Positions 32,772-64,000 are shown, counted from the stretch's first letter. The stretch: DNA of 64,000 nt from Spirochaetia bacterium (GCA_965203905.1 CBDBDQ010000005.1:4736001-4800000), one strand, 5' to 3'. Numbers and translations: made by a program. Notes: generated by a model not told the origin, from the letters alone.

Positions 32772-33070
32772 GCCGCACCCCGCCGTCGCGGCCGCGGCTC
32801 GGCGGGCGCACGGCGCCGCTGGATGATGCCGACCATGGTACCCTGCGTGGTGCGGGCGGTAGCGATCGCCGCCGTCGTCATTCCGTCCAGTGTAGCATCG
32901 ACCGGCAGGCCCGCACTCAGATAGCCGGCGCGCAAGTGGCTCCACCAGCGATCGCCGCGCGCCTCGCGGTGCGCGTACAGCGCGTTGACGCGCCCGATCT
33001 GGTGCGCCAACTGGAGTGCGGTCGGCATCCAGGGTACCCGCTCGGAGTACCGTAGTCTCTTGGTGCTCAT
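32768..33070 (-). CDS. Hypothetical phage protein
   Basis: AGGAGG RBS, MSTKRLRY start, stop overlaps the integrase start. Confidence 0.6.
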   Translation of the reverse strand: MSTKRLRYSERVPWMPTALQLAHQIGRVNALYAHREARGDRWWSHLRAGYLSAGLPVDATLDGMTTAAIATARTTQGTMVGIIQRRRAPAEPRPRRRGAA

Positions 33071-38859: not shown

Positions 38860-39333
38860 TCATGCAAACCCTCCCAGCTTGCGCTCGGCCATGCTCACGA
38901 ATCCACGTCGCGCCACGATCACGTGGTCGTAGACGTCGATCTCCAGGGATTCGGCGCCGCCCAACAGCTTGCGGTTGATCCGCAGGTCGGCAGGGGAAGG
39001 CGCCGGGTCTCCGCTCGGGTGGTTGTGGACGACGATCATGTGCGGCGCCCCGGCAACCACTGCCGGGCGCAGGATCTCGGCGATACGGGTTGAGGCGGCG
39101 TTGACGGTGCCCTGGTAGACGGTCACTGCCTCGATCAGCTCTGACTTGTTGGTCAGCAGCAGCACCCGGAGTTGCTCTTGCAGCAGCCCCGTCATGTCTG
39201 CGCAGAACGCGGCGACACTCTCAGGGGTCATCAACACCGTGTCGCTGTTCTCCGCTCCCTTGGCCACGCCGTAGCGCAACGCGATCTCCCGCAGCAGCGC
39301 TTGGTTGTCCCTGAGAACTCCCAGCAGCTCCAT
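38860..39333 (-). CDS. RadC/JAB-domain protein
   Basis: QEQLRVLLL, GTVN, HNHPSGDPAPSPAD, DHVIV. Confidence 0.9.
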   Translation of the reverse strand: MELLGVLRDNQALLREIALRYGVAKGAENSDTVLMTPESVAAFCADMTGLLQEQLRVLLLTNKSELIEAVTVYQGTVNAASTRIAEILRPAVVAGAPHMIVVHNHPSGDPAPSPADLRINRKLLGGAESLEIDVYDHVIVARRGFVSMAERKLGGFA

Positions 39334-40103
39334 CAGTCCAGCTTCTCGCTTGGCAGCCGGATCTCGCTGCTCATGCACTCGCGCATTCCCATGACTCCGC
39401 CGTCCGCCATGTAGACTTGATCGCCCTCGATCCGGGTGACGGTGCGCCACTGGTGACCGTTCATCGTGTCCAGCACGCGGTCACCAACCGCCACCACCAC
39501 CTCACGCTCGTCAACGACCTCGGGCGGCGCGTCGCGCTCATCGCGCTCCGGGCTCGCCTCGCTCGCGTTCCACTCGCCGCTGCGCGTCCAGGTATCGGCG
39601 GCGCGCTCCGCATCGGTGTAGTGGGAGAACTGCTTGGTATGGCGATGCTCTGGCAGCGTGTTGCGGTCCAGTACGTAGGCTTCCACGGTGTAGGTCCGCG
39701 CGACCATCGCCGGCGACAGGCGCCGCTCGTTGGTCGCGAGCGTAGCGTTGCGCCCGGTCTCCCATGAGTCCGACACCCACCGGACGCGCGGCGCAGTAAG
39801 GTCGCTCATCACGTGGCCCGGCACGAACGTCTCGTCGGCAGTGTCGCCGCAGTACAGCTCGATCATGTTGGCGATCTGCTTCACCACGCCGTGGCACTCA
39901 TGCTCGGCTGCGATCGCCTGCGCCGCCTGTAGGACGTGCAGGTCCTTGATTCGCGGGTCCAACACCAGATCCTCGATGCGCTCCGGGAGCGCTGCGTTGA
40001 GCGCATCCCGGAGTCCCTCTGCCTCGCGCCGAGCCACCAGGATCGACACGTTCGGTACGTTCAGGTTCACCCGCCCGTTGCCGTGTACCGTTGCCGTTGC
40101 CAT
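39333..40103 (-). CDS. Hypothetical phage protein
   Basis: 256-aa ORF with GGAGG RBS, TGATG-coupled on both sides. Confidence 0.7.
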   Translation of the reverse strand: MATATVHGNGRVNLNVPNVSILVARREAEGLRDALNAALPERIEDLVLDPRIKDLHVLQAAQAIAAEHECHGVVKQIANMIELYCGDTADETFVPGHVMSDLTAPRVRWVSDSWETGRNATLATNERRLSPAMVARTYTVEAYVLDRNTLPEHRHTKQFSHYTDAERAADTWTRSGEWNASEASPERDERDAPPEVVDEREVVVAVGDRVLDTMNGHQWRTVTRIEGDQVYMADGGVMGMRECMSSEIRLPSEKLD

Positions 40104-45389: not shown

Positions 45390-46043
45390 ATGAGCCAGCC
45401 AGACGTAACCGCCCTCGTCGATAGTTTCATTGACTATGTGACGAAGATACGTGACCTAAATCAAATTATAGACGAACTGTTCCAGAATCCCTCCGCCCAA
45501 GACATCATGAACAACACCGCACCTAAATTCATGATGAAGATGAATGGGTTGGTCCTCAATTCCGTGATTGGAGCGATGAGTCGGATCACGGAACCCGCGA
45601 CGTCCCACGGGCACCAGAATCTCACTGTTCGAACAGTCGTGAAACGGCTAATATGGACCGATGGTCGAGGCTCTCAAGCGGAGCGAATAGCACAACGGTG
45701 CGACTGCTTTCATCAACAACTTAAGAAGGGCCGGGACAAACTGCTCGCCCATAATGATCTCCAGACCGCTCTTGCCGGTAAGCTGTTTCCGTTCCCACTC
45801 CCGCCAAGTATCGGCAAGGACGTAATCGTACAATTGGAGCTTCTCATCGAGCTAGCATCCGAGCAGTATGGATTATCCAAGGGACGTGTCGTCTTATGCG
45901 GTGACGAGCGGCAATTCATTAAAGCCCTGAATGATTCGTTGCTCTTTGAGCGCACTCTCAAGGATTGCAGACTACCGAGAGAGCTACGAAGCGACATGCT
46001 GGTGTGGAGATTAGAATCCGGCGAAAAACTTTTCGAAGCTTAG
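45390..46043 (+). CDS. HEPN-domain protein (AbiU2-like)
   Basis: RITEP...NLT and RDKLLAHND (Rx4-6H) motifs; helical, lower GC. Confidence 0.65.
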   Translation: MSQPDVTALVDSFIDYVTKIRDLNQIIDELFQNPSAQDIMNNTAPKFMMKMNGLVLNSVIGAMSRITEPATSHGHQNLTVRTVVKRLIWTDGRGSQAERIAQRCDCFHQQLKKGRDKLLAHNDLQTALAGKLFPFPLPPSIGKDVIVQLELLIELASEQYGLSKGRVVLCGDERQFIKALNDSLLFERTLKDCRLPRELRSDMLVWRLESGEKLFEA

Positions 46044-46202: not shown

Positions 46203-47451
46203 GAGGTTCTTGCAAAAACTCTGTGAGCGTTGATGAGGAGTTGGGGACGCGATACCAGAGGACTGGATGGTAACCCGGCTTCGGCCGGGACGCCTTCAGA
46301 GCGTCGGCGGCGCCGCGAATCGGCCAGAATCGGCAGGTCATGCCACCTCCGTGACTGGGTGCGGACAGTACTGTGGCCTGTCTCCGGGAGATCAGCTTGG
46401 TCTCGCGCTACCGGATCGGAACGAGGATCGAGTTCAGTTCACCAGACGTAACAACTGATCCACGGTCAACGCCAGGACCCCGAACATCAGGTGGCACAGC
46501 ACCTTGCTGTGGCCGCGCACGCGTACCTGCCGGGCGCCGAACTCGTCCTTCAGCCGACCGTTGACGCGCTCCACCGTCGACCGCTCCCGGTAGCGCACCT
46601 CCTTGGCGTACGGTTGGCCGAGGGTGCGCTTCGCTTTCGCCTCCTGCTTCAGTGCCTGCTTGAATGCGGCACTGTTGTTGCGCGGATTGACACCTGCGGC
46701 AGATCGTCGAGTATCTCCGGCAGCGTCATGGTCTGCTGACGCTCAAGACGGCTCGGTTCCTTGGGCCGTTCCTCGCCCTTGCGCGGGCGTCCGCGCTTGC
46801 GCTTCGGCTTGGCTGGCTGCTTGGGCTTCGGCGTCGCTTTCTCGCGCCCCTCGATCGCCGTCGCATCGCGTGACACGTGGCCGACCAACTGCTCGGCCAT
46901 GGTGTCCTCGATCAGCGCCTGGTACAGGCGACTCGGCAAGGCACCCTCGGCAAACCCGGCAAAGGCCCGCGAGAAGGTCGCCTCGCTGGGCAGCGCGCCT
47001 CTATTCTCCCAGCCGCACAGACGGCGCAGCGCCTGGTCGTTGCCCAGCCGCTCGCGCAGCGCCCTGGTAGTGTCGATCCCGAACACCGCCTTGGCGATGA
47101 AGGCGCGCGCCAACGCCGCCCGATCCTGGCGCGGGCGCCCGCGCAGGGTACGACCGCACGACAGATGTCGTTCCACCCGGACGAACTCAAGCACGGTGAT
47201 GAACGACTGGTAGCGTTCTCCCAGGGGACCGAGGTCTTGCTCGAGGCTCGGGAACAGACACTCTTGAATGGTGCACCAGTAACTGGATAGTCTTGCGCGC
47301 AGGGACATGGCCGCTCCTCGCTCCCATCATGTGGGTTTGTGGTGAAACACATGGTATTACGGAGTGAGCCGGCCCGTCCCTGTTGAAGTCAGCCTCTGAC
47401 AGCCTCCCTCATCTCCAATTCCCGCTCTCTTGGGAATTTTGCAGGAGCCTC
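46203..47451 (-). mobile_element. IS1182/IS5-like element with an internally deleted transposase (46649-47308)
   Basis: IRs GAGGTTCTTGCAAAA and TTTTGCAGGAGCCTC; GRP...LRRLCGW...PSEATFSRAF...SRDATAI; C-terminal RSTVERVNGRLKDEFG out of frame. Confidence 0.82.
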
Positions 47452-48353: not shown

Positions 48354-48398
48354 CTAAGTCCGCCGTCCGGGGAATGGTTGCGGTGGCAAGGAGCCCCA

Positions 48399-50468
48399 AT
48401 GGGGAAGGGCCGACACGCCGAGACCCTGGACCGCGAAGCTCTCTACGACGTGACCCCGCACGGGAATGCCAGCTACCTGCTGATGCAGTACGGCCGCCAG
48501 TTGCTCGTGGTGCGCAACGAGCAACTCTCGCACTCCGATCTGTACGTCCTGGACGACACCGGGATATGGCGCCGGGGTGACGAAGTGCTGCACGGATGGT
48601 TGCTCGAACGGGGCGACAGCCTGCGCAGGCAAGCGCTGCAGGAGGCACAGGACCAAAATAGGGACGAGAAGTCGCTGATAGGGGCGTTGCGCAGCATCCG
48701 CCCGCTGTTCGACCCGAGAGAGCTTCTGCCGCTGCGGAAGATCGCCGCCGCCTCGTATGCAGTGCTGCGCAAGAAGTACCAGAGCATTTCCGGGGGTGAT
48801 AATGACTTCGGCGTTACCCGATGCTTCGACCCCGCCCTGGACGCCGACCTGCAGTTTTTCGGGTGCGAGTCCGGGGTGATCGATCTGCACACCGGGAAGC
48901 TGCTCGCGCCCGAGGAAGGCAGGAAGCACCTGATCACCAAGCGAGCGCCGGTCAGGTACGCACTTGGCGCGAGCCACCCGGACGTCGACCGTCTGTTCGC
49001 GCACCTCCCGCCCGATCAACGTGACTGGTGGTGGCGGGCGCTTGGCTTCGCGCTCCGCGGCGTTCCATCCCGGCGTTTCTATGAGCTGAAGGGCCCGCCG
49101 GGCGGCGGCAAGAATGGCTTGATGCGGGCGTTGACTGGCACCCTCGGCCCCTACGCCAGCATCACCCAGGCGTCGCTCCTGGAGATGCGCCGGGGTGGTA
49201 GCAACGAAAGCGAGACGGGGCTTTCGCCGCAAGTCGTACACATCGTGCCACCGGTTCGCCTCGCCTTTGTCAACGAGGTGAAACCTACCAGGTTGAACCA
49301 CAGGATCCTGAAGGACTACTCCGGCGACGGGTTGGTCTCGTGGCAGCCAAAGAACAAGGACCCGCGCACCGACCCGGTGAGCGCCACACTGATCCTGCTG
49401 TGCAACCCCGGATCGCAGGCGCAGCTCGGCGGACACGACGAAGGCATTCGCGTTCGCCTCCGGGCGCTGCCGTACCCGGCGATCCCAAAGGACGCCGTGA
49501 TCGACGACTTCAACGACGTGCGGATCAAGGACCCTACCTTCAAGGAGGCCCTGTTCGCGCGCCTGGTCGCGGCCGCGGCGCATCAGCCGGTGGGCAAGCC
49601 CCCGGAGGAGCCGATCTCCATCAAGAAGGCTACGACCCAGCGCATCGTGGAAGACGTGGGCGAGATCGGTGTCTTCGCGGCACGGGTCGTTCGCGGAAGC
49701 GGCGTGCTCACCTCGCCGGATGTGTGGGCGGCTTGGTGCGAGCACAACGACGAGCCGACGGACGCCACGGAAGCCGGCGGCATCAGCCGCAACCGCCTCG
49801 GTGCACGTCTTCGCGAACACGTGACCGGCTTTCCGGAAAGGGCGTCGCCGTTGAAGCAAGGCGGCAAGAACGTGCGCGGCTGGCGTGGCTGGCGGCTGTT
49901 GACGGTGGAAGAGGCGGAAAACGAGACCGCCGCCCGACAGATTGTCGCCGATCTCCTGGCGGCCGTCCGGAAATGGGACCCGGACCAGATCGACAAGTGG
50001 ATTGCCCTGCTGCGCAGATTCGCGGAAGGCGAGATCATGGAATTCGATGGCCGCTTCTATATAAGTGCGCCGGCGTACTCGTACATGGAGAATGAAGAGG
50101 AACCGCCCGCCGCGTTCGAGCAAGCTTACAAGCGGTTGCTGCCGATGAGAGTGAGAACCGACAGTCATTCTATCGACTTAGAGACCGAAATCGCCATCGT
50201 GTTGGCCGAAAATTATCTGGTACAGGCGGCCTATAGGCTTCCTAACGATGCCACGGCTGAAGTTCTGGCCTCTGAGGCAGTCCGCCTGATGAAGGTCGGC
50301 ATGAGCACTACATCGGTGGAGTTCAGGTCAGCGGCGAAACTTCTCACGTCCGAACTTGAGAAGATTATCCAGAGGGTATGCAACGTTTCCGACAACGCCA
50401 TGCCCGACACGAAGGCAGGAGACCTGTTCAACGGCCAGCCGGCGCCAGCGGAACGCCTCGAACCGTGA
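48399..50468 (+). CDS. P4/D5-type SF3 helicase (primase C-terminal family)
   Basis: D5-N region FGCESGVIDLHTGKL...ITKR, Walker A GPPGGGKN, RLAFVNE, LILLCN, GIRVRL; AAGGAG RBS. Confidence 0.8.
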   Translation: MGKGRHAETLDREALYDVTPHGNASYLLMQYGRQLLVVRNEQLSHSDLYVLDDTGIWRRGDEVLHGWLLERGDSLRRQALQEAQDQNRDEKSLIGALRSIRPLFDPRELLPLRKIAAASYAVLRKKYQSISGGDNDFGVTRCFDPALDADLQFFGCESGVIDLHTGKLLAPEEGRKHLITKRAPVRYALGASHPDVDRLFAHLPPDQRDWWWRALGFALRGVPSRRFYELKGPPGGGKNGLMRALTGTLGPYASITQASLLEMRRGGSNESETGLSPQVVHIVPPVRLAFVNEVKPTRLNHRILKDYSGDGLVSWQPKNKDPRTDPVSATLILLCNPGSQAQLGGHDEGIRVRLRALPYPAIPKDAVIDDFNDVRIKDPTFKEALFARLVAAAAHQPVGKPPEEPISIKKATTQRIVEDVGEIGVFAARVVRGSGVLTSPDVWAAWCEHNDEPTDATEAGGISRNRLGARLREHVTGFPERASPLKQGGKNVRGWRGWRLLTVEEAENETAARQIVADLLAAVRKWDPDQIDKWIALLRRFAEGEIMEFDGRFYISAPAYSYMENEEEPPAAFEQAYKRLLPMRVRTDSHSIDLETEIAIVLAENYLVQAAYRLPNDATAEVLASEAVRLMKVGMSTTSVEFRSAAKLLTSELEKIIQRVCNVSDNAMPDTKAGDLFNGQPAPAERLEP

Positions 50469-51042
50469 GCCGTCGCCTGCCTCGCCTGCGTCTGTGCTGC
50501 CCGGCTTGCGGTGGCGCGCCGCTCCTGCCGCACGACCTGCGCCAAAGGGTCCGATGCTCCTGCGGCACTGCACTGCGCGTAGCGTTGGTGTACGCGCACC
50601 CGCCCGTCGTCAGGCAGCAGCCAGCCGGCACCAGTGATCGCAACGCCCGTAGCGTCGGCCCGCGCGCGGCCGACGCGCTGGCAGCGGGACCGCCGATTGC
50701 CCGGCCCCGTACTTAGCCTATCGTGGCATCGGCGACGCCCGTGAGCACCTGGGTTGCTGTCGTCGATACGCCCATCCGGCCCGACAATGCCACGGTGCAT
50801 GAACACCCTCCGGCGTCGCCGCGGTAAAGTAGGTCACCTGCCGAGGGATCGCTGCGTGTGGCTCTGCATAACTAGCCGGTTTGACTTCCGGAGGGAACCA
50901 TTGTAGGCATTCCACAATAAACGTGGCACGGTCTCGTCAGTTCCTAGGCTGACGAGACCGTAATCTAAGTCACTTGTACAGGAAGCGCCCGAATGACTGC
51001 CGTACGAACCCGTATGCAATCAGATGGGGTGCTTTCCTGTCG

Positions 51043-52197
51043 ATGGGAGCGCCCGTGTCAGACGTAAGACTCGTCTACTACATCGGTGCCGGTGCAAGCG
51101 CTAAGTCTCTACCGACGGCAGCAGATATTCCCTCCCGTATGAGAAAACTCGCAAACGCGCTCAGCACCGGCAACTACGAACCTGACTCTCAATACAAACA
51201 TTTGCTTGGGCGATTGTGCGACGAAATGAAAAGCTTGGCTACTCGTGCCGCAGCGTATCCATCTATCGATGTACTTGCACGAATCCTCCATCTTCAAGGA
51301 AAAGACGCCGAGCTACGTAAGCTCAAAGCTACATTATCCACCTATTTGCTACTCGAACAATCTAATAAGCCCTCCGATCCTCGCTACGGTTCATTCTTCG
51401 CATACCTTGCTGATAAAGATGCTAATGGAACACTCGCAATGCCGACTGACTTACGTATTGTATCGTGGAACTACGATATGCAATTCGAAAAATCATTTGC
51501 AGAGTTTATTCCCGACCATCTCTACGAAAAGAAAAGTGATGTCGGCAGGATGTTACAAATTGTACCTACAGGGGTTGAATCTCGTGATCATTACGACGGT
51601 ATCTTTTCGATATACAAACTTAATGGCGCGGCTGGCGTACGAGACCCCTCGGACCGGGGCCACTTTCACAACAACAGAATGATGATCAAGTCCTATGACG
51701 TTGTTATCTTCGGCCAGACCGACAAATTCGACTGTAGTAGCCTTAATCTAGCTCTACACTTCTATGAAAAGGTCATGGGAAATGACGATCCTTACCTGCA
51801 ATTCGCTTGGGAGGACGACAATCGCCGTGCTAGCGTACTTGAACTCATTGACCAATTCTCCCCCGTTGAAATCGTTGTGGTAATAGGCTATTCGTTTCCA
51901 CTGTTCAACCGGGAACTTGATCGTAAGGTGTTCGAATTACTTGGCCCGAGGAAGGTATTCTTGCAAGTCGCCGCGGGAGACGAAGCTGTGAAGGATAGGC
52001 TCGGAGGGCTAGGGGTGGATTCGGAAATCGTCAGGGTCGTTCGTGACGAGGACCAGTATTACATTCCGCCCGCGTACTCACCTTCGGCGTGGCTGTCACG
52101 GGAGAGTCGCGCTGAACGGGACCTGACCTGTCCGCGTTCATCGGGAATGCGGACCCTTCGACCCACCGCATACTGGCCGCCGGCGACCTCAACCTGA
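51043..52197 (+). CDS. SIR2-like protein (defence type)
   Basis: YIGAGAS, IVSWNYD, YKLNG, VVIGYSF motifs; lower GC. Confidence 0.75.
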   Translation: MGAPVSDVRLVYYIGAGASAKSLPTAADIPSRMRKLANALSTGNYEPDSQYKHLLGRLCDEMKSLATRAAAYPSIDVLARILHLQGKDAELRKLKATLSTYLLLEQSNKPSDPRYGSFFAYLADKDANGTLAMPTDLRIVSWNYDMQFEKSFAEFIPDHLYEKKSDVGRMLQIVPTGVESRDHYDGIFSIYKLNGAAGVRDPSDRGHFHNNRMMIKSYDVVIFGQTDKFDCSSLNLALHFYEKVMGNDDPYLQFAWEDDNRRASVLELIDQFSPVEIVVVIGYSFPLFNRELDRKVFELLGPRKVFLQVAAGDEAVKDRLGGLGVDSEIVRVVRDEDQYYIPPAYSPSAWLSRESRAERDLTCPRSSGMRTLRPTAYWPPATST

Positions 52198-55442: not shown

Positions 55443-56138
55443 TCAGGTGGGCAGTAAGCGAACGAACCGCAGCAGGTTGTGGGCGAACACTGCCGAGTGT
55501 ACGTAGGCCTGGAAATGTTCCCAGCCGCGCCAGTGGCAGCGATCCAGCCCGAAGCAGCGCTTCAGATAGGAAACGCCTGCTTCAACGCCCGCCCGAAAGC
55601 GCTTGAGTTGGCCGTAAATCCACGCCGAAGGCGTCATCTCGGTCGGCTCCAGCCCGCTTTTCTTGTGGAACACCACGTGTTCGACTCCCAACTCCTTGGC
55701 GGCTGCCAGATTCGCCTGCGACGCATAGCCGCCATCGAAAGCCGCTCGTTGCGGTGCCTCGCCGTAGATTGCCACGTGCCGCTCCAGCATCGGCAGGCAG
55801 CGTTCGCTGTCGGCCGGGTTGCCGCTCTCCACCACCACGTCAAGCACCAGCGCACTGCGCCCCGTGGTCAGGTTGATCTTGTGTCCGTAGTGGGTCGCAC
55901 GCCCGCCCTTGCGGATGATGTCGGTGTGCGGCTCGAACAGACTCACCACCTTCCCGCTCGCTGGCACCGTTTCCCCGGCGAACACGCGGCGCTTGGTCTG
56001 ATCCACCACCCGCTCGAGCAGCTCAAGGTACGAGCGCACCTCGCTGCACCACCTCTCGGTCCACGGCGCAGCTTCGCAGGCCACCACCGGCAGCGCTGCC
56101 TCGACGTAGCCGATGGTCCGCTTCACCACCCGCAGCAA
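55443..56138 (-). pseudogene. ISNCY/IS5-like DDE transposase, C-terminal part
   Basis: KVVSLFEPHTDIIRKG, GNPADS, FDGGYAS, FRAGVEAGVSYLKRCFGL; N-terminus missing. Confidence 0.8.
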
Positions 56139-56522
56139 CTTCCGGTAGGTGGCCGCGCGCGCAGATCCAGCAGGGGCTTCCCCCGCTTGGGTTCGATGTC
56201 GGAAACGAGTCTACCAGACTGTGCGGGCCGTAGTTGTTATCGGCAGAGTGGTCGGATGGGTACTTCCGAGACACCGAGGGGCGTGTCCGTGCGTGGGACG
56301 GTGGAAAGACGAAGGAGGAATGCAGCTCCTGATAGTTGCAGGCCAGCGACGGGGCCGGGCAGCTTGGTCAGCGGCCGTCGTTCTGAGGCCCCGGACGGGC
56401 GTCAGAAACCCGTTCCAAGAAGCTGTATGGGCGGCCGGAGCAACCACCGTCTCGACTGAACGGGTTTGTACGGAAGTGAACACAGAGGTGGCATCGGCAC
56501 GCGATCTAGCGAGGGTGATCGG

Positions 56523-56867
56523 ATGAGCAACACGTCGTCGGAACCTGATGCTCTCCGTTGGCGCGCGGGCATGGTAGAGCTGAAAAAAGATGCGGTGGCG
56601 GTGGCGCGCAAACTGGAACGGCGGTTGGAACACGCTGAGATCATAGGTCGGTACCTTTGGAAGACACATGACAACGGTGTTTATTTCCTCTGCGCAAGTG
56701 CCGTTGTGGCACTCTTTCTCATCGTAGTGCCGGCAGTAGCTCAGAACCTGATCATCACCGATCGGAAATTGCCGCCGAACTACACTAACTTGAAGCAAAT
56801 AGTTGGACCCGCGGCGTATCGGGCCCATAAAGTATATTTTGGCCGCTTTGGAGGGCTATGGTCGTGA
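56523..56867 (+). CDS. Small membrane or exported protein
   Basis: One hydrophobic segment; overlaps the WD40 gene start. Confidence 0.4.
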   Translation: MSNTSSEPDALRWRAGMVELKKDAVAVARKLERRLEHAEIIGRYLWKTHDNGVYFLCASAVVALFLIVVPAVAQNLIITDRKLPPNYTNLKQIVGPAAYRAHKVYFGRFGGLWS

Positions 56868-59800
56868 AACTCAATACGTTGAAATGTAAGTTATTGAAGC
56901 CGTTATCCATTGCATTCTTGCTAATCGTATCCCCATTGTACTCCGACGATATTCGCTTTGTTCCCGTCCACGAATTAACCAATTTTAGGCCAATGGATGC
57001 CATCTACCACCCGCGTGACAACCACCGGTTGATGGTTCTCAATCAAGGTGGGCGAGTTGACATTTTTGACATCAATATCTGGAGCGAGCCTAAGAAGATC
57101 TTAGAAATCCCAACTGGAGCATATACTGTTGCGTTTAGTCCCGACGGGAAGCAGATCGTATCTGGAGCGGACGACGGAACTGTACGTATATGGAATGTGA
57201 ACGAAGCCGGAGGCATGCCTAACACGCTTGGTACCCATGATGGATGGATCTTTACTGTCGCGTTTAGTCCCGACGGGAAAAAGATCGTATCCGGAGGGCA
57301 AGACGGCAATGTACGTCTATGGAATGTGAACGACACTGTAGGAGTGCCTTACACGCTTGGTACTCATGACGGATGGGTCTCTACTGTTGCGTTCAGCCCA
57401 AGTGGCAGCCACATCGTGTCAGGCGGTTACGACAAGACGATGAGGATCTGGCACTTAGATTCCCCTAACACCGTAAGTGCGCCGTTAGCCGCACATGATA
57501 GCACTGTCCACAGTGTCGAGTTTAGTCCCGACGGAAACTTTGTCGTATCAGGTGATGCTTTCGGAGTCCTACAGTTGTGGGATGTTACCGACCTTGCTCG
57601 ACCTACGCTCGTAGGAATCCCCATCGAGGCTCATCGAGACGAATTATGGGATGTATCCTTCAGTCAAAATGGAGAATATATCGTCTCCGGAGGCAGCGAC
57701 GGAGCTATCCGATTCTGGTCTGTTGCCGATATCAGGAGCGGCAAAAAGGTAGTCGGTACGTTGATTGAGGGTCACAGATTCGGGGTCGGAAGTGTCCGCT
57801 TCAGCCCCGATGGAAACCGAATTATAACGAGCGGCGAGGATCGTACCGTGAGAGCCTGGGACGTCCATGGTATTGTCTCGATGCCCGGTTTTCTTGAGCA
57901 TGGTAGTTGGGCGACAACTGTCTCGTTTAGTCCGACTGGTGGATATATCGCGTCAGGTGGATACGACAACATAGTTAGACTGTGGGATGTCTCGGATTTT
58001 GCCGATGCTAGGCTAAAAGGAGAGTTGGAAGGGCACGAAGACGTGATAAACAGTCTTGCGTATAGCCCAAGCAGCAGCATAATTGCATCGGGCAGCAACG
58101 ACGGGTCGATCATTCTTTGGAACATCGAAGACATTGAGAAACCGAGAGCTATGGGCGAACCGATTTCAGGAGATAAGTTTTACGTAAACGCTGTTGCGTT
58201 CAATCCGGATGGAACGCACCTTGCATCAGGAGGAACTGCCGGTATTCGACTGTGGCATGTGGACGAGGGCCGATTGACCGAGACGTGGCGCGATGCGCAT
58301 GACGCCTGGATAACGGCCGTCGCATTTAGTTCTGACGGAAAGTATCTTGTGTCGGGATGCGACGAAGGGCTCCTGCGACTGTGGAGCGTAGAGGACGTCC
58401 ATAATATTAGGCAAATTGGCACTCCTTTGTCGGCGCATTTTGGAGTTCGGAGCGTGGCCTTCCATCCCGATGGAAAGCACTTCGTGTCTGGTGGAGATGA
58501 CGACCAAGTGTTGATGTGGAACGTTGACAAGATTGAAGCCGGAGATGGCCGTGGCAGCCCAATCCCGGGACATGGAGGCGAGATTCTTAGTCTGTCGTTT
58601 GATCGGCAGGGTACGTATCTCTTGTCAGGTGGTTATCAGGGTGATCTGGGATTATGGGACTTCAAAAAAGGACGGAAGATCAGCGTACCAACCGAGGGAC
58701 ATAGAAGTTGGATTCAGAGTGTCGCGTTCAGCCCAGACGGACGTCATATGGCCTCGGCCGGAGGAGATGGTACGATACGATTGTGGCGATTGGGTAACGG
58801 CACCAGTGCTGGCGGCCCACTGAAGAACCTCAGCGGACTGATGAGGAACGTGGTGCTAAGTTCGACCGGTGATCAAATTGTTTCAATTAGCGAGCGTGGT
58901 GTCGCTCGCCTATGGCGTTCGGACGGCGTTAGGTTGCTAGGTGCCACCAAAGTGACTAGCGCGGAGTTTAGCCACGACGACACGAGGTTGTTTTTGGGAC
59001 GAGACAACGGTGCGGTGGAGATCTGGGACACAGATAGTGCGACGTACGTGGGCGAGGCACTGGGCGGTCCGAGGAGCGCCGTGAACAGCATAGCCGTGGG
59101 CCCGGAAGGGAAGCACGTTGTGTCAGTGCGCCGTGATGGTTTAGCGATACTCTGGGACGTGGACAGCCTCTCATCTACGGATCACGAGGCCGCCATCGAA
59201 AGCGCCGCGTTCAGTCCAGATGGCACGCGTGTCGTCCTAGGCACCAACGACGGCACGGTACGGCTGTGGGACGTCAGAGTCCGAGATCGAGTAGGCGGAG
59301 CCGGCGAGGGACATCATGGTCCCGTTGAGAGCGTGGCGTTCAGCCCGGATGGAAACCACGTCGTGTCAGGGGGCGAGGACGGGACAGTCCGTTTATGGGA
59401 GGTCAATGATTTGCGCCTCTCAGGCGGCCTACCGATCGGAAACCACTTCAGGAGCGTTTGGAGTGTCGACTTTAGTATCGACGGGGAACGGGTGGTTTCA
59501 GCCGGCCATGACGGGAACGTTAGAATATGGGAGCGAGATGGTGAACAGATGGTACAATCAGCAGTTATTTGCGGGAGTGGATATCGTGAAATACGCTCTG
59601 TGAATTGGATAGCGCCTAGTGCGATCATAGTGGGCTGCCGCGATAGGACCGTGCTCTTGAACTCTAGTCTTGGACGTACGGGAGAGGTTTTTGTACTCCG
59701 AGAGGGGCTTGTAGCGACGATTGAGGGGCACGGTGTGTATGCATCACCGCCGAACCTAAAAGACAAGATAACTGCTTTCATCGGATCCGAAGATCAGGGC

Positions 59801-61336
59801 GTCGCAGACGTTATATCAGATCGACAAATGCAGCACTATCTGTTTGGGAGGTCAGACCCATGGTTGATCATCGGCACGACCACGGAAAGGGCAATAAACA
59901 AAGTCGTTGAGTTTCATAGGAGACTTGGAGTCTATTCGGTAGGCCTGTGGCTCCTGCTGGCGGAAATTATCGGAGTGTTGGCAGTAGTCACCGCGTGGCT
60001 ATTTTGGCCCGCGAAGTTGGCTTGGTGGTCGATGCCAAAGGCTGGCAGCAGACATGCGGTACTTGAGATCTTTGAAGATAGCAGTAATCCGGTAACTGCG
60101 CGGCTGTCTGGTGTCGTTAGATTGCTTACTTTATTCCATGTACTAGGTCGCACGAAACGTCCCTTGGTAAAGTGGCTACAAGAGAGTCGTCCGGAGATCG
60201 AAGAAAGATGTTTCACTGACCGAACTCAGGTGCGCGAGCGTGCCAATTATTGCTCCGTTGGAAATGAGGACGATACAGCAAGATTCTTAAGCCATCTCGA
60301 CGCCAATGAACGTGGGCTAATTTGGATATTGGGTGCTGGTGGCACTGGCAAGAGTGCGCTAGCTATTCACGTAGCCGGTGAGACCCTCGTGGGGAACACC
60401 AACAGACCGATTCCGTTATATATTGGTGAGGACTGGAAGGGATCACTTGCTGCGCAAGTGGCCCGCTACTTGCGAGGTCCCAATTGGACCAGAGGGCCGA
60501 CTGAAAATATGGTCAAGACGCTCGGGGCTTTGGGTCTAGTCTGCCCATTGGTAGATTCATTGAGCGAGCGGAGCGACGAGGCTGGAACATCGGTGAAGAG
60601 TGCGGTGTTGGAGCACGACTTCAGACACGTTATAGTGACGTCTAGGAGAGAAGTGCACGATGAGCAGTTGGAACAGATAGTGGAGTCCATTGAAGTTCAT
60701 CAACTAAAACGTGCTAACATACTACCGTTTATTGAGTCATACCGAGATTACTACCGCATCGATGTAGGATCGGAGGAGGTGAGGCGAAGAATTCAACCGC
60801 TCTTCGACGACGGTAGGAACATGCCTAGCCCTCTATTTCTTCGCTTCGCCATTGCGGAGGCCACGGCGGGGCCGGTGGGTGTGATAGATAATATGACCCT
60901 CGTGTTGAGGTATATGGAGGCGCTGCGCGCTGATAAGATAGATATTCGTAGCGAGGACATGGAGCGAGCGGCGGGAGTGGCAGCGATTAGGGCCGTTCAA
61001 GACAGGTTGATACCGGGTGAAGTCTCCGTGTCGGAATTACGAGAGACGCTAATGGCTGAGATCAACTCAGATGAGTTCTACGACGTGGCGGGAAAGGAGT
61101 CAATACGTCCACCGGAGGTTGTTAACTTGTTGGTGGAATCGGGGCTCTTGGTGCGTTGGTCAAATACCCTTCAGTTTACATACGATCCAGTAGCGGAATA
61201 CCTTGCCGCGTGGTGGGTGAGAAGAACACGCCGTGGCAATCTTGAAGGCCTGCGCAGTCGCATAGAGCGTGCGGCTAATACGGGTGTGGGGCGCGCTTAT
61301 CAGGAGGTAGCGGTGGCACCGCGACAGGCTATCTAG
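56858..61336 (+). CDS. Signal peptide-WD40 (about 20-21 repeats)-TM-STAND/NACHT-like NTPase
   Basis: VAFSPDG...SG..D..VRLWD repeats; TM LWLLLAEIIGVLAVVTAWLFW; Walker A GAGGTGKS; LVDSLSE; IVTSR; SPLFL; FTYDPVAEYLAA. Confidence 0.88.
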   Translation: MVVKLNTLKCKLLKPLSIAFLLIVSPLYSDDIRFVPVHELTNFRPMDAIYHPRDNHRLMVLNQGGRVDIFDINIWSEPKKILEIPTGAYTVAFSPDGKQIVSGADDGTVRIWNVNEAGGMPNTLGTHDGWIFTVAFSPDGKKIVSGGQDGNVRLWNVNDTVGVPYTLGTHDGWVSTVAFSPSGSHIVSGGYDKTMRIWHLDSPNTVSAPLAAHDSTVHSVEFSPDGNFVVSGDAFGVLQLWDVTDLARPTLVGIPIEAHRDELWDVSFSQNGEYIVSGGSDGAIRFWSVADIRSGKKVVGTLIEGHRFGVGSVRFSPDGNRIITSGEDRTVRAWDVHGIVSMPGFLEHGSWATTVSFSPTGGYIASGGYDNIVRLWDVSDFADARLKGELEGHEDVINSLAYSPSSSIIASGSNDGSIILWNIEDIEKPRAMGEPISGDKFYVNAVAFNPDGTHLASGGTAGIRLWHVDEGRLTETWRDAHDAWITAVAFSSDGKYLVSGCDEGLLRLWSVEDVHNIRQIGTPLSAHFGVRSVAFHPDGKHFVSGGDDDQVLMWNVDKIEAGDGRGSPIPGHGGEILSLSFDRQGTYLLSGGYQGDLGLWDFKKGRKISVPTEGHRSWIQSVAFSPDGRHMASAGGDGTIRLWRLGNGTSAGGPLKNLSGLMRNVVLSSTGDQIVSISERGVARLWRSDGVRLLGATKVTSAEFSHDDTRLFLGRDNGAVEIWDTDSATYVGEALGGPRSAVNSIAVGPEGKHVVSVRRDGLAILWDVDSLSSTDHEAAIESAAFSPDGTRVVLGTNDGTVRLWDVRVRDRVGGAGEGHHGPVESVAFSPDGNHVVSGGEDGTVRLWEVNDLRLSGGLPIGNHFRSVWSVDFSIDGERVVSAGHDGNVRIWERDGEQMVQSAVICGSGYREIRSVNWIAPSAIIVGCRDRTVLLNSSLGRTGEVFVLREGLVATIEGHGVYASPPNLKDKITAFIGSEDQGVADVISDRQMQHYLFGRSDPWLIIGTTTERAINKVVEFHRRLGVYSVGLWLLLAEIIGVLAVVTAWLFWPAKLAWWSMPKAGSRHAVLEIFEDSSNPVTARLSGVVRLLTLFHVLGRTKRPLVKWLQESRPEIEERCFTDRTQVRERANYCSVGNEDDTARFLSHLDANERGLIWILGAGGTGKSALAIHVAGETLVGNTNRPIPLYIGEDWKGSLAAQVARYLRGPNWTRGPTENMVKTLGALGLVCPLVDSLSERSDEAGTSVKSAVLEHDFRHVIVTSRREVHDEQLEQIVESIEVHQLKRANILPFIESYRDYYRIDVGSEEVRRRIQPLFDDGRNMPSPLFLRFAIAEATAGPVGVIDNMTLVLRYMEALRADKIDIRSEDMERAAGVAAIRAVQDRLIPGEVSVSELRETLMAEINSDEFYDVAGKESIRPPEVVNLLVESGLLVRWSNTLQFTYDPVAEYLAAWWVRRTRRGNLEGLRSRIERAANTGVGRAYQEVAVAPRQAI

Positions 61337-61338
61337 CT

Positions 61339-62337
61339 ATGCAGTCCACCATACCGGACCTACTTGTGCAGATCTGCAAGCTCGGTGGAGTCTTATGGAC
61401 TGCGGCTTTTGGCATAATGGGTCTGCTGGTGACGTTTCGCGATGAGAGAACGCAACGAGTCACCAAATGGGGCCGCATAGCACTATCAGGTATTGTCGTT
61501 TCGACCACTCTTGGTGTCGTGGGTCAGCTTCTTGAACACACCCTTGAAATAGAGAGCCTTTCCGAGAGTGTTGGACGGCAGGAGAAAATACTTCTCGAGA
61601 TCAATCGCCAGAATCACTCGTTCACTGCTGACGCCCAGATCATTACAGCTCTTCGGTTTCCTAAAGACCATCCGGTGACCAAGGAATATCTTGATGACTG
61701 TCTTGATAACTGCCTCATGCCGCTCTTTAACGACATCATAGAGGAGTACGGTAATCGAGGTAGTTGGTACAATCCGAAATATTCGCAGATCTACGTTGAT
61801 GGACATACTGGTCCCGAAGGAAATCAAGTAGATAAAATCTGGCTGCCAGTTCCTCATGACATATTATTTCCGAAGGAAGCCATTAAAGTGTCGCTAGAAG
61901 TTGGAGTCTACGAAGGATCTGTATCCGTCAATGACGTGGACCTTTCGCTCCCTGCCTCTGCTGGTAAACCATACTCTGAGGTTTCTTTCGCGCTGTCCTC
62001 AAATCGTCTCGAAGCAGGCCGCCTACACTACTTTCCGAGCCGCGAGATCTTCGTGTTCGAATTCCGAGCACCTCCAGGCCATATACGCACGGCATTCGCC
62101 CCGATGAGCATCCTAGATCTTCAGGATAAATTGCTCGTCGTCGGCATCCTCGGAGAGGAAAATGCGACGATTTCATTAGTCGGCATACAGTTCAGGCTTT
62201 CTTCTGGAGTTGCCGTGACAATTGGAAGTGAGGCATTCGAAGCTACCTCGAATTCCTGGCCGGATGTGTCGCACTTCGCGGTTATTGACGATCTCGATCA
62301 AACGGGGCAATGGCCGGTCGAGTACATACTGCCATGA
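61339..62337 (+). CDS. Hypothetical protein with two N-terminal TM helices
   Basis: Starts 2 nt after the STAND gene; two hydrophobic segments flanking RVTKWGR. Confidence 0.7.
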   Translation: MQSTIPDLLVQICKLGGVLWTAAFGIMGLLVTFRDERTQRVTKWGRIALSGIVVSTTLGVVGQLLEHTLEIESLSESVGRQEKILLEINRQNHSFTADAQIITALRFPKDHPVTKEYLDDCLDNCLMPLFNDIIEEYGNRGSWYNPKYSQIYVDGHTGPEGNQVDKIWLPVPHDILFPKEAIKVSLEVGVYEGSVSVNDVDLSLPASAGKPYSEVSFALSSNRLEAGRLHYFPSREIFVFEFRAPPGHIRTAFAPMSILDLQDKLLVVGILGEENATISLVGIQFRLSSGVAVTIGSEAFEATSNSWPDVSHFAVIDDLDQTGQWPVEYILP

Positions 62338-62784: not shown

Positions 62785-63261
62785 ATGCACCGTCTACTCG
62801 CCGTGGCCGCGCTACTGATGGTTCTGGCCGTCGCTTCGCCCGCCTACAACCCGCCACCAGAGGGTTGGTTAGTAACGATCCGCGAGTACAGCGACCCGGA
62901 TTCGGTGTCCTATTGGATTGACGTAACCGGAGACTGCATCGATCAGGATACAGCCAACGATTTGGTTGAGTCCGAGATGGTGCGCAACCGTATCACGAAC
63001 GAGTACACCGGGCTTGCTCTGAACGTGGATGTGATGTGCCTGGCAACGGGGGACGGTTCGTGGGTGTACCACGTGAGGCCCTTTCTCCGGCGTTGGGAGC
63101 GGTTCGGCGAGCTTTTCGTTTTCTGGGACATATCTCTCAACCGAGCCACGATCGGGATAGCGGACACGGTCAAGACCATTGAGGATACCGTTACAGAAGC
63201 CGTGCGAATCGCGCTCACCGACTTCATCTACGCCCACAGTCAAGGGGTAGATTCAAACTGA
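62785..63261 (+). CDS. Hypothetical exported protein
   Basis: Signal peptide MHRLLAVAALLMVLAVASPA; its stop codon lies inside the IR at 63252-63270. Confidence 0.6.
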   Translation: MHRLLAVAALLMVLAVASPAYNPPPEGWLVTIREYSDPDSVSYWIDVTGDCIDQDTANDLVESEMVRNRITNEYTGLALNVDVMCLATGDGSWVYHVRPFLRRWERFGELFVFWDISLNRATIGIADTVKTIEDTVTEAVRIALTDFIYAHSQGVDSN

Positions 63262-63270
63262 AGCACTACC
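63252..63270 (-). repeat. Orphan IS-like terminal repeat related to 29357-29375
   Basis: Reverse complement GGTAGTGCTTCAGTTTGAA, 17/19 identical to GGTAGTGTCTCAGTTTGAA. Confidence 0.7.
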
Positions 63271-63373
63271 GGTAAGTTGCATGCATCCCCGTCTCCGGAC
63301 AAAATTGAAACCAGTAGGGCAACGCCACGTCCGAGAACCGGGCACTCTGTCGCCTGGGAGCACCGGCTCCGAA

Positions 63374-63990
63374 TCAGGGCGCCTGGTACGGAACGGTCAT
63401 CACGGGTGCCGGTACCTCGGGCCTGCCCTTCGTCTGGGCGGCGAGTTGCTGCCTCTCCAGCTCGGTCAAGTACGTCCGGCGTAGATCGTTCGGGGTCACC
63501 GGGTCGACGCCTGCCTGCTTGGCGATGGTGCATACCCGCAGCATCACGGCTTGGTCGGTCATGGCCTTCGTCTGGATGCGCCCGCCCCTGACCGGGCACA
63601 GCAGGGCCCCTGACCAGTCGCCGCGGATCGCGATCCAGGCGTCGATCGCTTCCTTGCCACCGTCTGTCGCGTAAATCTGCCGCACGTCGTGGCGTACGGT
63701 GATGGCCCCGGACATCTGGTCGTAGTCCGCGAGCAAGAGCGCGGCTGCTTCCGAGCGCCGCAGGCCGGCGCCGTAGAGCAAAGCGAGCATGGCTACATCC
63801 CGTGCGCCGACAGGATCGGTACCGGGCGCCGCGAACAAACGCCGAACCTCGCCCCGTTTGACGTATCGTCCTCCACGTCGGCGCTGTTGCGGCTTCTCGT
63901 TCCGCTCGTCCTCGACAGCGATCCGCGTCTTGTCGTCTACCAGCCCGAGTTCCTATGCTATGCGCACCGTACTCCGGACCCCGAAAGCAT
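63374..63990 (-). pseudogene. Degraded tyrosine recombinase, relative of 31671-32771
   Basis: GARDVAMLALLYGAGLRRSE, PNDLRRT; the GKG segment and the catalytic H/Y region are deleted. Confidence 0.8.
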
Positions 63991-64000
63991 GTGGTTGACG

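Follow-up and report, generated by a model that had tools for sequence, protein, structure and literature searches.

To our knowledge, STAND/NLR receptors have been described in all kingdoms as cytoplasmic proteins in which direct contact with the repeat domain keeps the NOD locked. The propellers of Apaf-1 contact and lock its NOD, and in ZAR1-type plant CC-NLR resistosomes the sensor is cytoplasmic and a helix inserts in the membrane only after activation. A Walker B of the form hhhhD and a sensor-1 of the form hhhTSR or TTR are the defining STAND motifs.

Among bacterial systems, the available text of Kibby et al. (bioRxiv 10.1101/2022.07.19.500537) describes bNACHT proteins as an N-terminal effector, a central NACHT module with the Walker B signature D[GAS]hDE and a C-terminal sensor, the sensors including beta-propellers and HEAT repeats. 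In the same text some bNACHTs carry a transmembrane (TM) segment, a subset is suggested to sense intramembrane or periplasmic signals, and some end shortly after the NACHT module. KAP P-loop NTPases are described, in the part of the literature available, as having TM helices inserted within the NTPase domain (reference cited in Kaur 2021). The sea cucumber protein AjNLRC4 is described as joining an extracellular Ig region and a TM segment to an intracellular NACHT, with a reported cytoskeletal output (JBC 2026, PMC13133943).

The receptor gene P0001 was found in a window (the whole stretch of DNA analysed, 64,000 nucleotides) from a Spirochaetia bacterium. As far as the available descriptions go, bNACHT and Avs/AVAST proteins share with P0001 the NBD–helical–winged-helix order, the P-loop, the TSR motif, a Walker B of the D[GAS]h.E type and repeat sensors, but P0001 places its repeats first, is predicted to export them, has the membrane between repeats and NOD and lacks an effector domain, and the Walker B of its family is D[GSA]hSE instead of D[GAS]hDE. 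The canonical NLR/bNACHT architecture, with effector, NOD and sensor all cytoplasmic, is not the one seen in P0001. Apaf-1 and the fungal NWD/HNWD WD40 STAND proteins also combine a NOD with multi-propeller WD40 domains, yet they are soluble and run NOD-then-WD40, whereas the propellers of P0001 would lie across the membrane, where contact is impossible. AjNLRC4 is likewise a surface receptor on an NLR module, a likeness of design only and by available description, and differs as an animal protein with Ig instead of WD40 in its ectodomain. As in the ZAR1 type, a helix just N-terminal of the P0001 NOD ends in the membrane and would be gathered by oligomerisation, which makes the ZAR1 resistosome the model for the output proposed below; unlike in ZAR1, this helix is a constitutive TM anchor with no conserved pore-lining pattern. 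KAP proteins, as described in the available text, are also membrane-tied P-loop NTPases with a role in conflict systems. Assignment of P0001 to the KAP group was rejected, since its single TM lies ~130 aa upstream of Walker A, none lies inside the NOD and the fold is NLR-like.

Order of parts and predicted membrane topology

P0001 (1492 aa, 56858..61336) was defined from the ORF list and its translation, with an ATG start, GGAGGG 4 nt upstream and a TAG stop; coordinates are those of the window, and features lie on the + strand unless stated otherwise. The coordinates of P0001 and its downstream neighbour P0002 in the original prediction agree exactly with the ORF calls and translations. As read from the sequence, the order of parts is leader, WD40 region, linker, TM helix, juxtamembrane motif and NOD, after which the protein ends. 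The inverted order proposed earlier, sensor repeats first and NTPase last, is therefore present in P0001, and it is conserved across the family, as is the lack of an effector domain, nothing being found beyond the winged-helix end. The membrane-spanning layout is supported, topology having been assessed by hydropathy, motif logic and family conservation.

The predicted signal peptide (residues 1-29, 56858..56944; hydropathy and homologue alignment) has a Lys-rich n-region and a 13-aa h-region at residues 15-27 by hydropathy, and is weakly hydrophobic (1.54, 19-residue window). Cleavage is probable after LYS and before DDIRFVP, a site placed by alignment to homologues with AXA or lipobox sites and by the R-[FYLIV]-VP motif; LYS–DD is itself non-canonical and the h-region of P0001 is short. 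The signal-like N-terminus noticed earlier is seen as an n-region and h-region that align with AXA/lipobox homologues. An N-terminal h-region was detected by hydropathy in 42 of 52 long family members, and a strong one is absent in 10 of the 52, some of which may have wrong starts. The post-leader motif R-[FYLIV]-[VIE]-[PE] was present in 33 and a lipobox in 7 of the 43 long members with an h-region in the set used for leader motifs, and AXA sites were judged by eye to be present in many family leaders.

The WD40 region (residues ~36-940, ~21 blades, 56963..59677) was delimited using Pfam, a self-built repeat HMM and inspection by eye. PF00400 (WD40) matched P0001 with an E-value of 1.9e-148 over 17 stretches, and many other propeller families matched too. 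The repeat HMM located 19 repeats in residues 89-894, to which two degenerate blades (~36-88 and ~905-940) were added by eye, in agreement with an earlier estimate of 20-21 repeats. About 21 blades would be enough for three 7-bladed propellers. A 129-nt tandem duplication, 84% identical, lies within the WD40 region at 57124..57393. The ectodomain is Cys-poor (0-0.6% vs 0.24-1.65% in the NOD; lower in 26/32 sequences), with a Cys pair in the last blade, C905 being kept in 23/32 and C927 in 24/32 sequences. A juxtamembrane ectodomain linker of ~80 aa (residues 941-1022, 59678..59923) was recognised from conserved columns of alignment A4.

The TM helix (residues ~1024-1050, 59927..60007) was placed at the hydropathy maximum and by family conservation. 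Its peak of 2.33 over residues 1023-1055 agrees with the single TM helix first proposed, and no hydrophobic segment was found by hydropathy inside the P0001 NOD. The helix lies 131 residues before Walker A in P0001 and 106-164 aa before it in 52/52 long members (hydropathy 1.62-2.95); judged from these sequences, the TM-then-NOD layout is a family trait and not peculiar to P0001. The charges flanking the TM gave no hint of its orientation (mean K+R of 1.63 ahead of it and 1.60 behind it), and no conserved polar or small-residue face marking a pore was seen in the 86-sequence alignment. The same alignment defined the cytoplasmic juxtamembrane motif PAKLAWWSMPK (60008..60040; consensus P-[AS]-[RK]-L-A-x-W-[SA]-M-P), in which P1051, A1055 and M1059 are each at least 90% conserved in alignment A4.

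The C-terminal NACHT-like module

A helical pre-NBD region (residues ~1078-1150, 60089..60307) was delimited from alignments A2 and A4 and from helices at model residues 23-42, 45-65 and 82-93. Its block pLDDT was 80-96 starting at model residue 41, the first helix being modelled less confidently, and alignments A2 and A4 contain the conserved motif LGxTxRxLxxWL...CF..R..V.ER..Y. The NOD that follows (60308..61336; AlphaFold2, Foldseek and profile) comprises an NBD, a helical domain, a winged helix and three terminal helices.

The AlphaFold2 model of the P0001 C-terminus (pLDDT 88.3, pTM 0.83) shows the order NBD, helical domain and winged helix that characterises STAND proteins; model residues 376-385 form the beta-hairpin of the wing. 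Foldseek matched it to NLRP3, NLRC4, NOD2, Avs4, Apaf-1 (3sfz) and CED-4 (E 1e-7 to 4e-6) in alignments spanning 370-430 columns, and a profile of 22 family NODs matched NLRC4 residues 160-396 with an E-value of 9.9e-5. The fold check on the C-terminus thus returned a STAND fold by model, fold search and profile alike.

Walker A (60332..60355) reads GAGGTGKS from residue 1159, a P-loop of the STAND form GxxxxGK[ST]; within the family form GxGGxGKS, G1161, G1162, G1164 and K1165 are invariant in alignments A2 and A4. Walker B (VDSLSE, 60545..60568) follows the hhhhD pattern as PLVD1233, with D1233 invariant in both alignments, and the sensor-1 arginine stands on the next strand in VIVTSR (60629..60646), R1263 showing no variation in A2 and at least 90% conservation in A4. 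The winged-helix motif QFTYDPVAEYLAA is located at 61172..61210. NACHT proteins also have signatures ahead of the NTPase domain and a wHTH extension at the C-terminal side; what the family shows in these places is a conserved helical stretch before the NBD and F..D.hAEYLAA in the winged helix. Of 107 family sequences, 97 have a D[GSA]hSE Walker B and 1 has DGIDG; TSR occurs in 82/107 and F..D.hAEYL in 80/107. The strict NACHT Walker B D[GAS]hDE is not found in P0001, which reads DSLSE, keeping the small residue and the last Glu and having Ser in place of the first acidic residue.

Pfam PF05729 (NACHT) gave no row at E<=10 for the P0001 C-terminus. The same model matched 12 of 22 family NODs at E<=1 (best 1.7e-6), and P0067 (35.1 bits) and P0161 (28.3 bits) pass its gathering score of 26.7 bits. 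Weak local matches to the P0001 C-terminus were returned by PF24406 (nSTAND_NTPase4), PF20720 (nSTAND3) and PF24883 (NPHP3_N). The first scored 18.2-18.6 bits over the winged-helix motif, below its 27-bit gathering score, and matched 1/22 family members at E<=1; it occurs in 35% of members of the nearest language-model cluster. Because of the fold matches and the motifs GxGGxGKS, hhhhD[GSA]hSE and TSR, the modelled C-terminus of P0001 is assigned as a NACHT-like STAND NTPase missed by Pfam, in line with the NACHT-like P-loop and terminal winged helix of the original prediction.

Family and genomic context

A search with residues 1056-1492 yielded a family of 189 cluster representatives; for the receptor gene as a whole, 26 other full-length-type homologues were found. 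The distribution of the family is patchy, the annotation of its members goes no further than 'WD40 repeat protein' or 'hypothetical', and searches of plasmids and phages returned no homologues. Within it there is a clade of ~400-aa solo NODs without a TM. The family NOD is below the NCBIfam thresholds. PADLOC-DB 2.0 gave no significant defence model, the NOD matches being weak P-loop hits: for P0001 it returned mad8 (E 0.012) and HEAT-ARM_XIII, the latter driven by the repeats of the WD40 part, and for the family NODs only mad8, in 4/22 (best 1.2e-3).

The ectodomain carried on the common NOD chassis is usually WD40, but three members have HEAT (P0151, P0068 and P0114), P0159 has a BNR propeller and P0077 a trypsin-like domain. 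It diverges faster than the NOD in 29/31 comparisons with P0001. Sensor swapping together with fast ectodomain divergence would be more typical of conflict receptors.

The GC content around the P0001 gene is low, at 0.44-0.55 as against 0.60-0.68 upstream, although it reaches 0.63 in one stretch at 58.8-59.5 kb. This patch belongs to a mobile island in which integrases and transposases occur together with a HEPN AbiU2-like gene and a weak SIR2-like gene. Ten related loci were compared, and no neighbour family is common to them. C5 methylases, a PRTase-CE gene, a patatin gene and a HicB gene lie near loci L004 and L008, and a transposase near L002. Ordinary-looking genes or nothing diagnostic were found at L001, L003, L006, L009 and L010 (L006 being without scanned neighbours), among them histidine kinases at L003, GlnA at L009 and an O-antigen ligase and glycosyltransferase at L010; L005 and L007 have too little flank for a context reading. 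Directly upstream of P0001, ORF calling gave an orphan ORF of 114 aa with one TM (56523..56867), the stop of which overlaps the P0001 ATG by 10 nt. It had no Pfam or PADLOC match, the protein collection returned only itself, and there is a rival ORF of 205 aa on the minus strand (56211..56828), so its place in the P0001 unit is uncertain.

Proposed action and alternative explanations

The explanation towards which we lean, and which we regard as somewhat probable, is that P0001 is a single-pass inner-membrane STAND receptor with reversed part order and an extracytoplasmic sensor, probably with a role in conflict or defence, the role we consider most likely. It is strongly supported that a predicted Sec-type signal peptide takes the WD40 propellers, ~1000 residues, out to the periplasm, that the TM helix brings the chain back into the cytoplasm, and that the juxtamembrane motif and helical region lead into the NBD–helical–winged-helix module at the protein end. 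The propellers would act as sensor of an extracytoplasmic ligand, for instance a protein from a phage or a competitor, or a molecule derived from the envelope. As they would be out of reach of the NOD across the membrane, the usual intramolecular lock would be excluded as a means of control. Ligand binding may instead cluster or reorient receptors via the TM and juxtamembrane segment, which would permit ATP-dependent oligomerisation of the NOD. Since there is no enzymatic effector domain, the likely output would be the oligomer itself, with bundling of TM and juxtamembrane segments damaging the membrane by a resistosome-like or TM-effector logic; alternatively, an unlinked factor may be recruited. 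The sensor role is favoured by the varied ectodomains on one NOD and their fast divergence, the conflict role by the low-GC mobile island and the genes near L004, L008 and L002, and the strong conservation of the juxtamembrane motif also speaks for this reading. Weighing against it are the short h-region and unusual cleavage site of P0001, the 10 long members without a strong h-region, the uninformative charges at the TM, the lack of plasmid or phage homologues, of a PADLOC defence model, of an effector and of a pore-marking face on the TM, the deviating Walker B, and the five related loci with ordinary or undiagnostic surroundings. The full chain of events, in which exported propellers recognise, the ligand-clustered TM signals, the NOD polymerises with ATP and the bundled TM/juxtamembrane helices kill, is a speculative and rather unlikely version. 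If true, it would represent a prokaryotic 'surface NLR', a pre-inserted resistosome without need of a separate effector domain, and phage or competitor proteins would be detectable in the periplasm before the cytoplasm is breached.

A non-immune receptor, in which the propellers respond in the periplasm to a cue from the envelope, from nutrients or from other cells and the STAND module is an ATP-gated switch acting on an unlinked cytoplasmic target, is considered unlikely. Bacteroides hybrid two-component sensors join periplasmic propellers to cytoplasmic outputs, STAND regulators such as MalT are non-immune proteins, and several related loci are among ordinary genes (L010, L003 and L009). A further precedent, as described in the available text, is a membrane-spanning one-component regulator with a periplasmic propeller sensor, a single TM and a cytoplasmic output (bioRxiv 10.64898/2026.01.10.698779). 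Against such a role, P0001 has no DNA-binding or enzymatic output domain, the family is patchy and without conserved neighbourhood, the copy in the window is part of a mobile island of low GC, sensors are swapped and ectodomains diverge fast.

P0002 (332 aa, 61339..62337; ORF and hydropathy) starts 2 nt after the P0001 stop and has two N-terminal TM helices (61381..61437 and 61477..61533; hydrophobic helices at residues 8-33 and 47-65), followed in the model by what appear to be one long helix and, at the C-terminus, a beta-rich domain of unassigned family. Its AlphaFold2 pLDDT was 57.5, with no fold match at E<=1e-3 and no Pfam, NCBIfam or PADLOC family. A SLATT-type assignment was rejected, as there was no SLATT Pfam match and the sole Pfam row was PTS_EIIC_2 (E 0.011, below cut-off). 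A two-gene system, with P0001 as sensor and P0002 as dedicated membrane effector or co-receptor, would fit the 2-nt gap with no terminator-like site on the + strand, the low-GC patch common to both genes, and the conservation of two TM helices and the C-terminal domain in P0002 and its 3 homologues (mean column identity 73%). Two-TM effectors also have precedent in conflict systems, e.g. SLATT, in the available text of Kaur 2020. However, only these 3 homologues were found among 5.8 billion clusters, a P0002 relative is encoded in 0/10 related loci (8/10 having at least 1.6 kb of downstream sequence), the contigs of the homologues P0030 and P0031 differ in length (15740 and 21000 nt) from those of 46 P0001-like proteins, and neither a family nor a fold match points to an effector. 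P0002 is therefore not a regular, conserved partner of P0001 and is at most a local accessory. The coupled membrane partner proposed originally fails on the neighbourhood check set beforehand, the downstream gene not being conserved next to homologues and no neighbour family being shared, and the two-gene system is accordingly improbable.

An inside-out machine, in which a WD40 scaffold in the periplasm, e.g. for an envelope-spanning structure, is built or remodelled by the NTPase at the expense of cytoplasmic ATP, is very improbable. In its favour, no sensor is attached to the NOD on the cytoplasmic side, the conserved juxtamembrane motif could pass force in either direction, and exported WD-repeat lipoproteins with structural roles, e.g. 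AglU of Myxococcus, provide a precedent. On the other hand, STAND modules are known to us as switches and oligomerisation platforms and not as motors, none of the 10 related loci shares conserved partner genes for a machine, and the ectodomain type varies (WD40, HEAT, BNR). An ordinary soluble WD40-STAND protein of odd order, its topology mispredicted because segments do not span the membrane or the WD40 part is cytoplasmic, could draw on the weakly hydrophobic leader (1.54), the indirect topology basis and the TM-less solo NOD clade, but is hardly credible given the TM in all 52 long members (1.62-2.95), the classical AXA sites and 7 lipoboxes of relatives, the conserved Cys pair in a low-Cys ectodomain, and the fact that an NTPase requires cytoplasmic ATP, so that, should the leader fail, a protein with only this one TM would have its ATPase on the outside, away from any ATP.

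Surveys that rely on Pfam, NCBIfam or PADLOC models would overlook the family, as its NOD falls below their thresholds. P0001 would be practical to study, being one gene with clear mutants (K1165, D1233, the leader and the TM). With the repeats across the membrane from the NOD, a direct-contact lock is unusable in the P0001 family, which would show a second mode of NOD control. The family would also extend NLR-type surveillance to the periplasm, and P0001 may sense threats before they enter the cytoplasm.

Domain architecture and topology of P0001

The receptor P0001 (1492 aa; 56858..61336, forward strand) had been described in the original prediction as an inverted, membrane-spanning NLR-like protein, and this reading was supported; the features first seen in its sequence were confirmed, and the placement of a TM helix ahead of the NTPase module is conserved in all 52 long members of its family (those in which 700 residues or more precede Walker A). 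The positions of its gene and of the gene directly downstream, which encodes the two-TM protein P0002 (332 aa; 61339..62337, forward strand), were exactly as predicted. The P0001 gene starts with ATG, with GGAGGG 4 nt upstream, and P0002 begins 2 nt past its TAG stop.

In residues 1–29 of P0001, a Lys-rich n-region precedes a hydrophobic core of 13 residues. WD40 was recognised by Pfam in 17 stretches (E 1.9e-148), and all 25 further Pfam families listed for the protein, of 56 matched, were propeller models. An HMM built from P0001's own repeats detected 19 units at residues 89–894, and two degenerate blades were identified by eye (approximately 36–88 and 905–940), for a total of about 21 blades; this would suffice for three 7-bladed propellers and agrees with the 20–21 repeats first counted. 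Two adjacent repeats are encoded by a tandem duplication at 57124..57393 of the forward strand (129-nt period, 2.1 copies, 84% identity), indicating recent turnover of the sensor repeats. The propellers are followed by an 80-residue linker and then by a hydrophobic helix (peak 2.33 over residues 1023–1055).

Searching with the cytoplasmic part of P0001 retrieved 189 cluster representatives at E≤1e-3 among 1.84 billion (70 at E≤1e-30), and among the 189 nearly all matches extended to the end of the protein. Every one of the 52 long members carried a strongly hydrophobic segment 106–164 residues before Walker A, equivalent to the TM helix of P0001, and 42 had an N-terminal hydrophobic core. The motif R-[FYLIV]-[VIE]-[PE] was found directly past the leader in 33 of the 43 scanned members with a hydrophobic core; DDIRFVP of P0001 aligns with it, placing a putative cleavage site after LYS29. 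Past the TM helix, the motif W..P-[AS]-[RK]-L-A-x-W-[SA]-M-P was strongly conserved.

Since a cleavable leader is followed by a single TM helix, and only this arrangement gives the NTPase access to ATP, we infer with good support that the propellers lie outside and the NTPase inside. Charge bias on either side of the TM helix was uninformative for topology. The ectodomain is Cys-poor, often with exactly two cysteines, and a conserved pair was present (C905 in 23 and C927 in 24 of 32 sequences), which would suit an oxidising compartment. Cysteine made up 0.24–1.65% of the cytoplasmic part and was above the ectodomain level in 26 of the 32.

Leader types varied among the same 43 members. A lipobox was present in seven (for example P0076, P0083, P0091 and P0102), and members with a lipobox leader and a TM helix are predicted to have both ends anchored. 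Another 12 of the 43 counts concerned twin arginines, which lie in the n-region just ahead of the hydrophobic core (for example in P0008, P0012, P0038 and P0041); judged from this leader motif, folded propellers may be exported by Tat. P0038 and P0042, which are different family members, were each reported on a 127124-nt contig and may be paralogues on one contig.

The C-terminal STAND module and its relatives

The C-terminal part of P0001 is a STAND module, as had been proposed. Pfam did not recognise it: the best row was nSTAND_NTPase4 (18.2 bits against a 27-bit cut-off), and NB-ARC, NPHP3_N and nSTAND3 rows reached E 0.04–0.15 only. NCBIfam and PADLOC added nothing on this module, and a single-sequence search against the PDB gave no match. 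A profile search against the PDB matched NLRC4 residues 160–396 (E 9.9e-5), the sole match spanning 220 columns; ArsA and APS kinase ranked above it but were discounted as local P-loop matches of 30–60 columns.

An AlphaFold2 model of residues 1056–1492 (pLDDT 88.3, pTM 0.83) had as top fold matches NLRP-type chains, NLRP3 NACHT, NLRC4, NLRP9, Avs4, NOD2, NRC2, Apaf-1 and CED-4 (E 7e-9 to 4e-6 over 370–430 columns). TM-scores were low (0.26–0.47), as expected when domain angles differ. The highest were to activated NLRC4 (0.47) and portal-bound Avs4 (0.45), a hint that the modelled module may be in an open arrangement. The protein ends with three short helices past the winged helix and has no effector domain.

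Alignment of the P0001 C-terminus with 21 relatives revealed the motifs GxGGxGKS, hhhhD-[GSA]-h-S-E-R, hhVTSR, SPLFxRxA and F-x-Y-D-P-V-A-E-Y-L-A-A. Across a broader sample of 107 sequences, D[GSA]hSE was present in 97, TSR in 82 and a final motif of the F-x-Y-D-P-V-A-E-Y-L-A-A type in 80. The NACHT Walker B is D[GAS]hDE by the rule given in Kibby et al. (bioRxiv 10.1101/2022.07.19.500537), whereas in the P0001 family its first acidic residue is replaced by Ser. P0001 was below the Pfam NACHT cut-off, which two relatives (P0067 and P0161) reached. In view of the Walker B Ser and this mixed outcome, the module is termed NACHT-like and is assigned to no clade.

Most relatives carry a WD40 ectodomain. 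HEAT repeats were found in P0151, P0068 and P0114, a BNR/Ycf48-type propeller in P0159 and a trypsin-like domain before the TM helix in P0077, while the ectodomains of several relatives had no Pfam match. P0167 is named 'caspase domain protein' in its source, which was not borne out, as the 25 Pfam rows listed were all WD40. With P0001 as reference, the ectodomain was less conserved than the STAND module (NOD) in 29 of 31 full-length relatives.

A NOD tree was built with FastTree and midpoint-rooted, without support values, and is used descriptively only. On it, the WD40 forms group with P0001 and the HEAT forms are split, P0151 falling with the BNR form P0159 in a distant clade and P0068 and P0114 lying apart from it, among other lineages. 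A further clade (P0081, P0096, P0098, P0101, P0103, P0110 and P0111) consists of proteins of about 400 aa whose N-terminus lies some 80 residues ahead of Walker A; they have neither TM helix nor ectodomain and may represent the NOD module as a soluble, stand-alone protein.

The downstream gene and the genomic setting

P0002 had also been put forward as a coupled membrane partner of the receptor, and this part of the prediction was not supported. Only three homologues were found (54–58% identity). Ten related loci were collected from reference genomes using an alignment of 7 closer sequences (seven Alphaproteobacteria, including Leisingera and Ruegeria isolates, one Phycisphaeraceae, one Acidobacteriota and one Propylenella). 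None contained a P0002 relative, with at least 1.6 kb of downstream sequence in eight, and none contained a relative of the 114-aa ORF upstream of P0001. All-against-all comparison of 324 neighbouring ORFs gave no shared neighbour, except for a C5 DNA methylase at two loci (L004 and L008) and a pair of cyclase-like fragments. The receptor gene thus usually stands alone, although P0002 may assist it at the locus in the window. No P0002 homologue could be traced to the contig of any of 46 P0001-like proteins, which is a weak test.

Hydropathy and a low-confidence AlphaFold2 model give P0002 two hydrophobic helices at the N-terminus, a long helix and a beta-rich domain. Pfam, NCBIfam and PADLOC place it in no family. 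It had no BLASTP match to P0001 and no tblastn match in plasmids and phages, and its best ESM Atlas score was 0.87, to unnamed clusters. A fold search gave no match at E≤1e-3 and was uninformative, the model being poor (pLDDT 57.5). The positive-inside rule weakly suggests that its large domain could be periplasmic, beside the propellers.

The upstream ORF (56523..56867, forward strand, one TM) has a stop that overlaps the P0001 ATG by 10 nt, and no relative but itself was found in the protein collection. A 205-aa opposite-strand ORF (56211..56828) competes with it for the same DNA.

The receptor block is a low-GC patch, mostly 0.44–0.57 but reaching 0.63 in one stretch, compared with 0.65–0.68 just upstream (300-nt windows). 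Positive GC skew was strong across 57500..61500 (0.13–0.29, 300-nt windows) and fell where P0002 begins; over the receptor gene it probably reflects composition, namely repeats rich in Gly, Asp and Trp together with the coding strand. This patch is embedded in what looks like a large mobile island (about 13.7 kb to the window end) with integrases (13724..14902, forward; 31671..32945, reverse), RadC (38860..39450, reverse), a DUF772-type transposase (46649..47308, reverse), a D5_N primase-like gene (48378..50468, forward), a DDE transposase (DDE_Tnp_1; 55443..56138, reverse) and an open frame that looks by eye like a recombinase (63240..63998, reverse; no Pfam match at 0.01). No tRNA was found within the 64-kb window. 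An HEPN AbiU2-like protein (45390..46043, forward; Pfam E 1.4e-6) and a low-GC 407-aa ORF (50974..52197, forward) with weak PADLOC matches to Argonaute-associated SIR2 (E 3e-5) could be additional defence genes of the island. The window also holds an odd pair of repeat proteins, a collagen-triplet and ankyrin repeat protein (26114..27634, forward; PADLOC candidate PDC-M72A, E 7e-41) and a pentapeptide-repeat protein (27631..28578, forward), whose genes overlap by 4 nt.

Comparison with known systems and proposed function

As described by Kibby et al. (bioRxiv 10.1101/2022.07.19.500537), bacterial NACHT proteins consist of an N-terminal effector, NACHT and a C-terminal sensor. Many membrane-proximal conflict systems were described by Kaur et al. 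(2020, 2021), none with a layout like that of P0001 in the portions available. A periplasmic NACHT–CLec target is predicted in one DGR locus (2024 PNAS paper), and 'transmembrane STAND ATPases' are named as sensors fused to proteases (2025 preprint). The 2026 survey of STAND clades in Nature makes no use of the word 'membrane' in its main text. In the literature searched, no leader–WD40–TM–NOD protein was described and 'nSTAND4' was not mentioned; the original STAND classification and the supplements of the bNACHT/Avs surveys may list such a protein.

In known STAND proteins such as Apaf-1 and NLRC4, the repeat domain contacts the NOD and keeps it shut until ligand binding releases it. In P0001, where the membrane is predicted to lie between the two, such a contact would be impossible. 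In the simplest working model, a ligand outside the cell would bind the ectodomain, receptors would cluster or reorient through the TM helix and the conserved juxtamembrane motif, and ATP-dependent assembly of the NOD would follow. As there is neither an effector domain nor a conserved partner, NOD assembly itself would be the output. It might gather the TM helices, comparable to the N-terminal TM effectors of bacterial NLR-like proteins, or form a platform for an unlinked factor. Plant resistosomes act by gathering helices in the membrane and offer a model for such an output.

Counting against a defence role, other related loci look ordinary, no PADLOC model matches the P0001 family and no family copies were found in plasmids or phages. 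Several things nevertheless point to a role of the family in conflict or defence: the mobile low-GC setting of the copy in the window, the patchy taxonomy, the swapping of sensors, and the neighbouring genes at two loci, namely a C5 DNA methylase, a PRTase-CE gene and a HicB-like antitoxin in a Ruegeria isolate (L004; 2731–4874 and 9802–10266) and a C5 DNA methylase and a patatin-like phospholipase in an alphaproteobacterial MAG (L008; 1323–4274).
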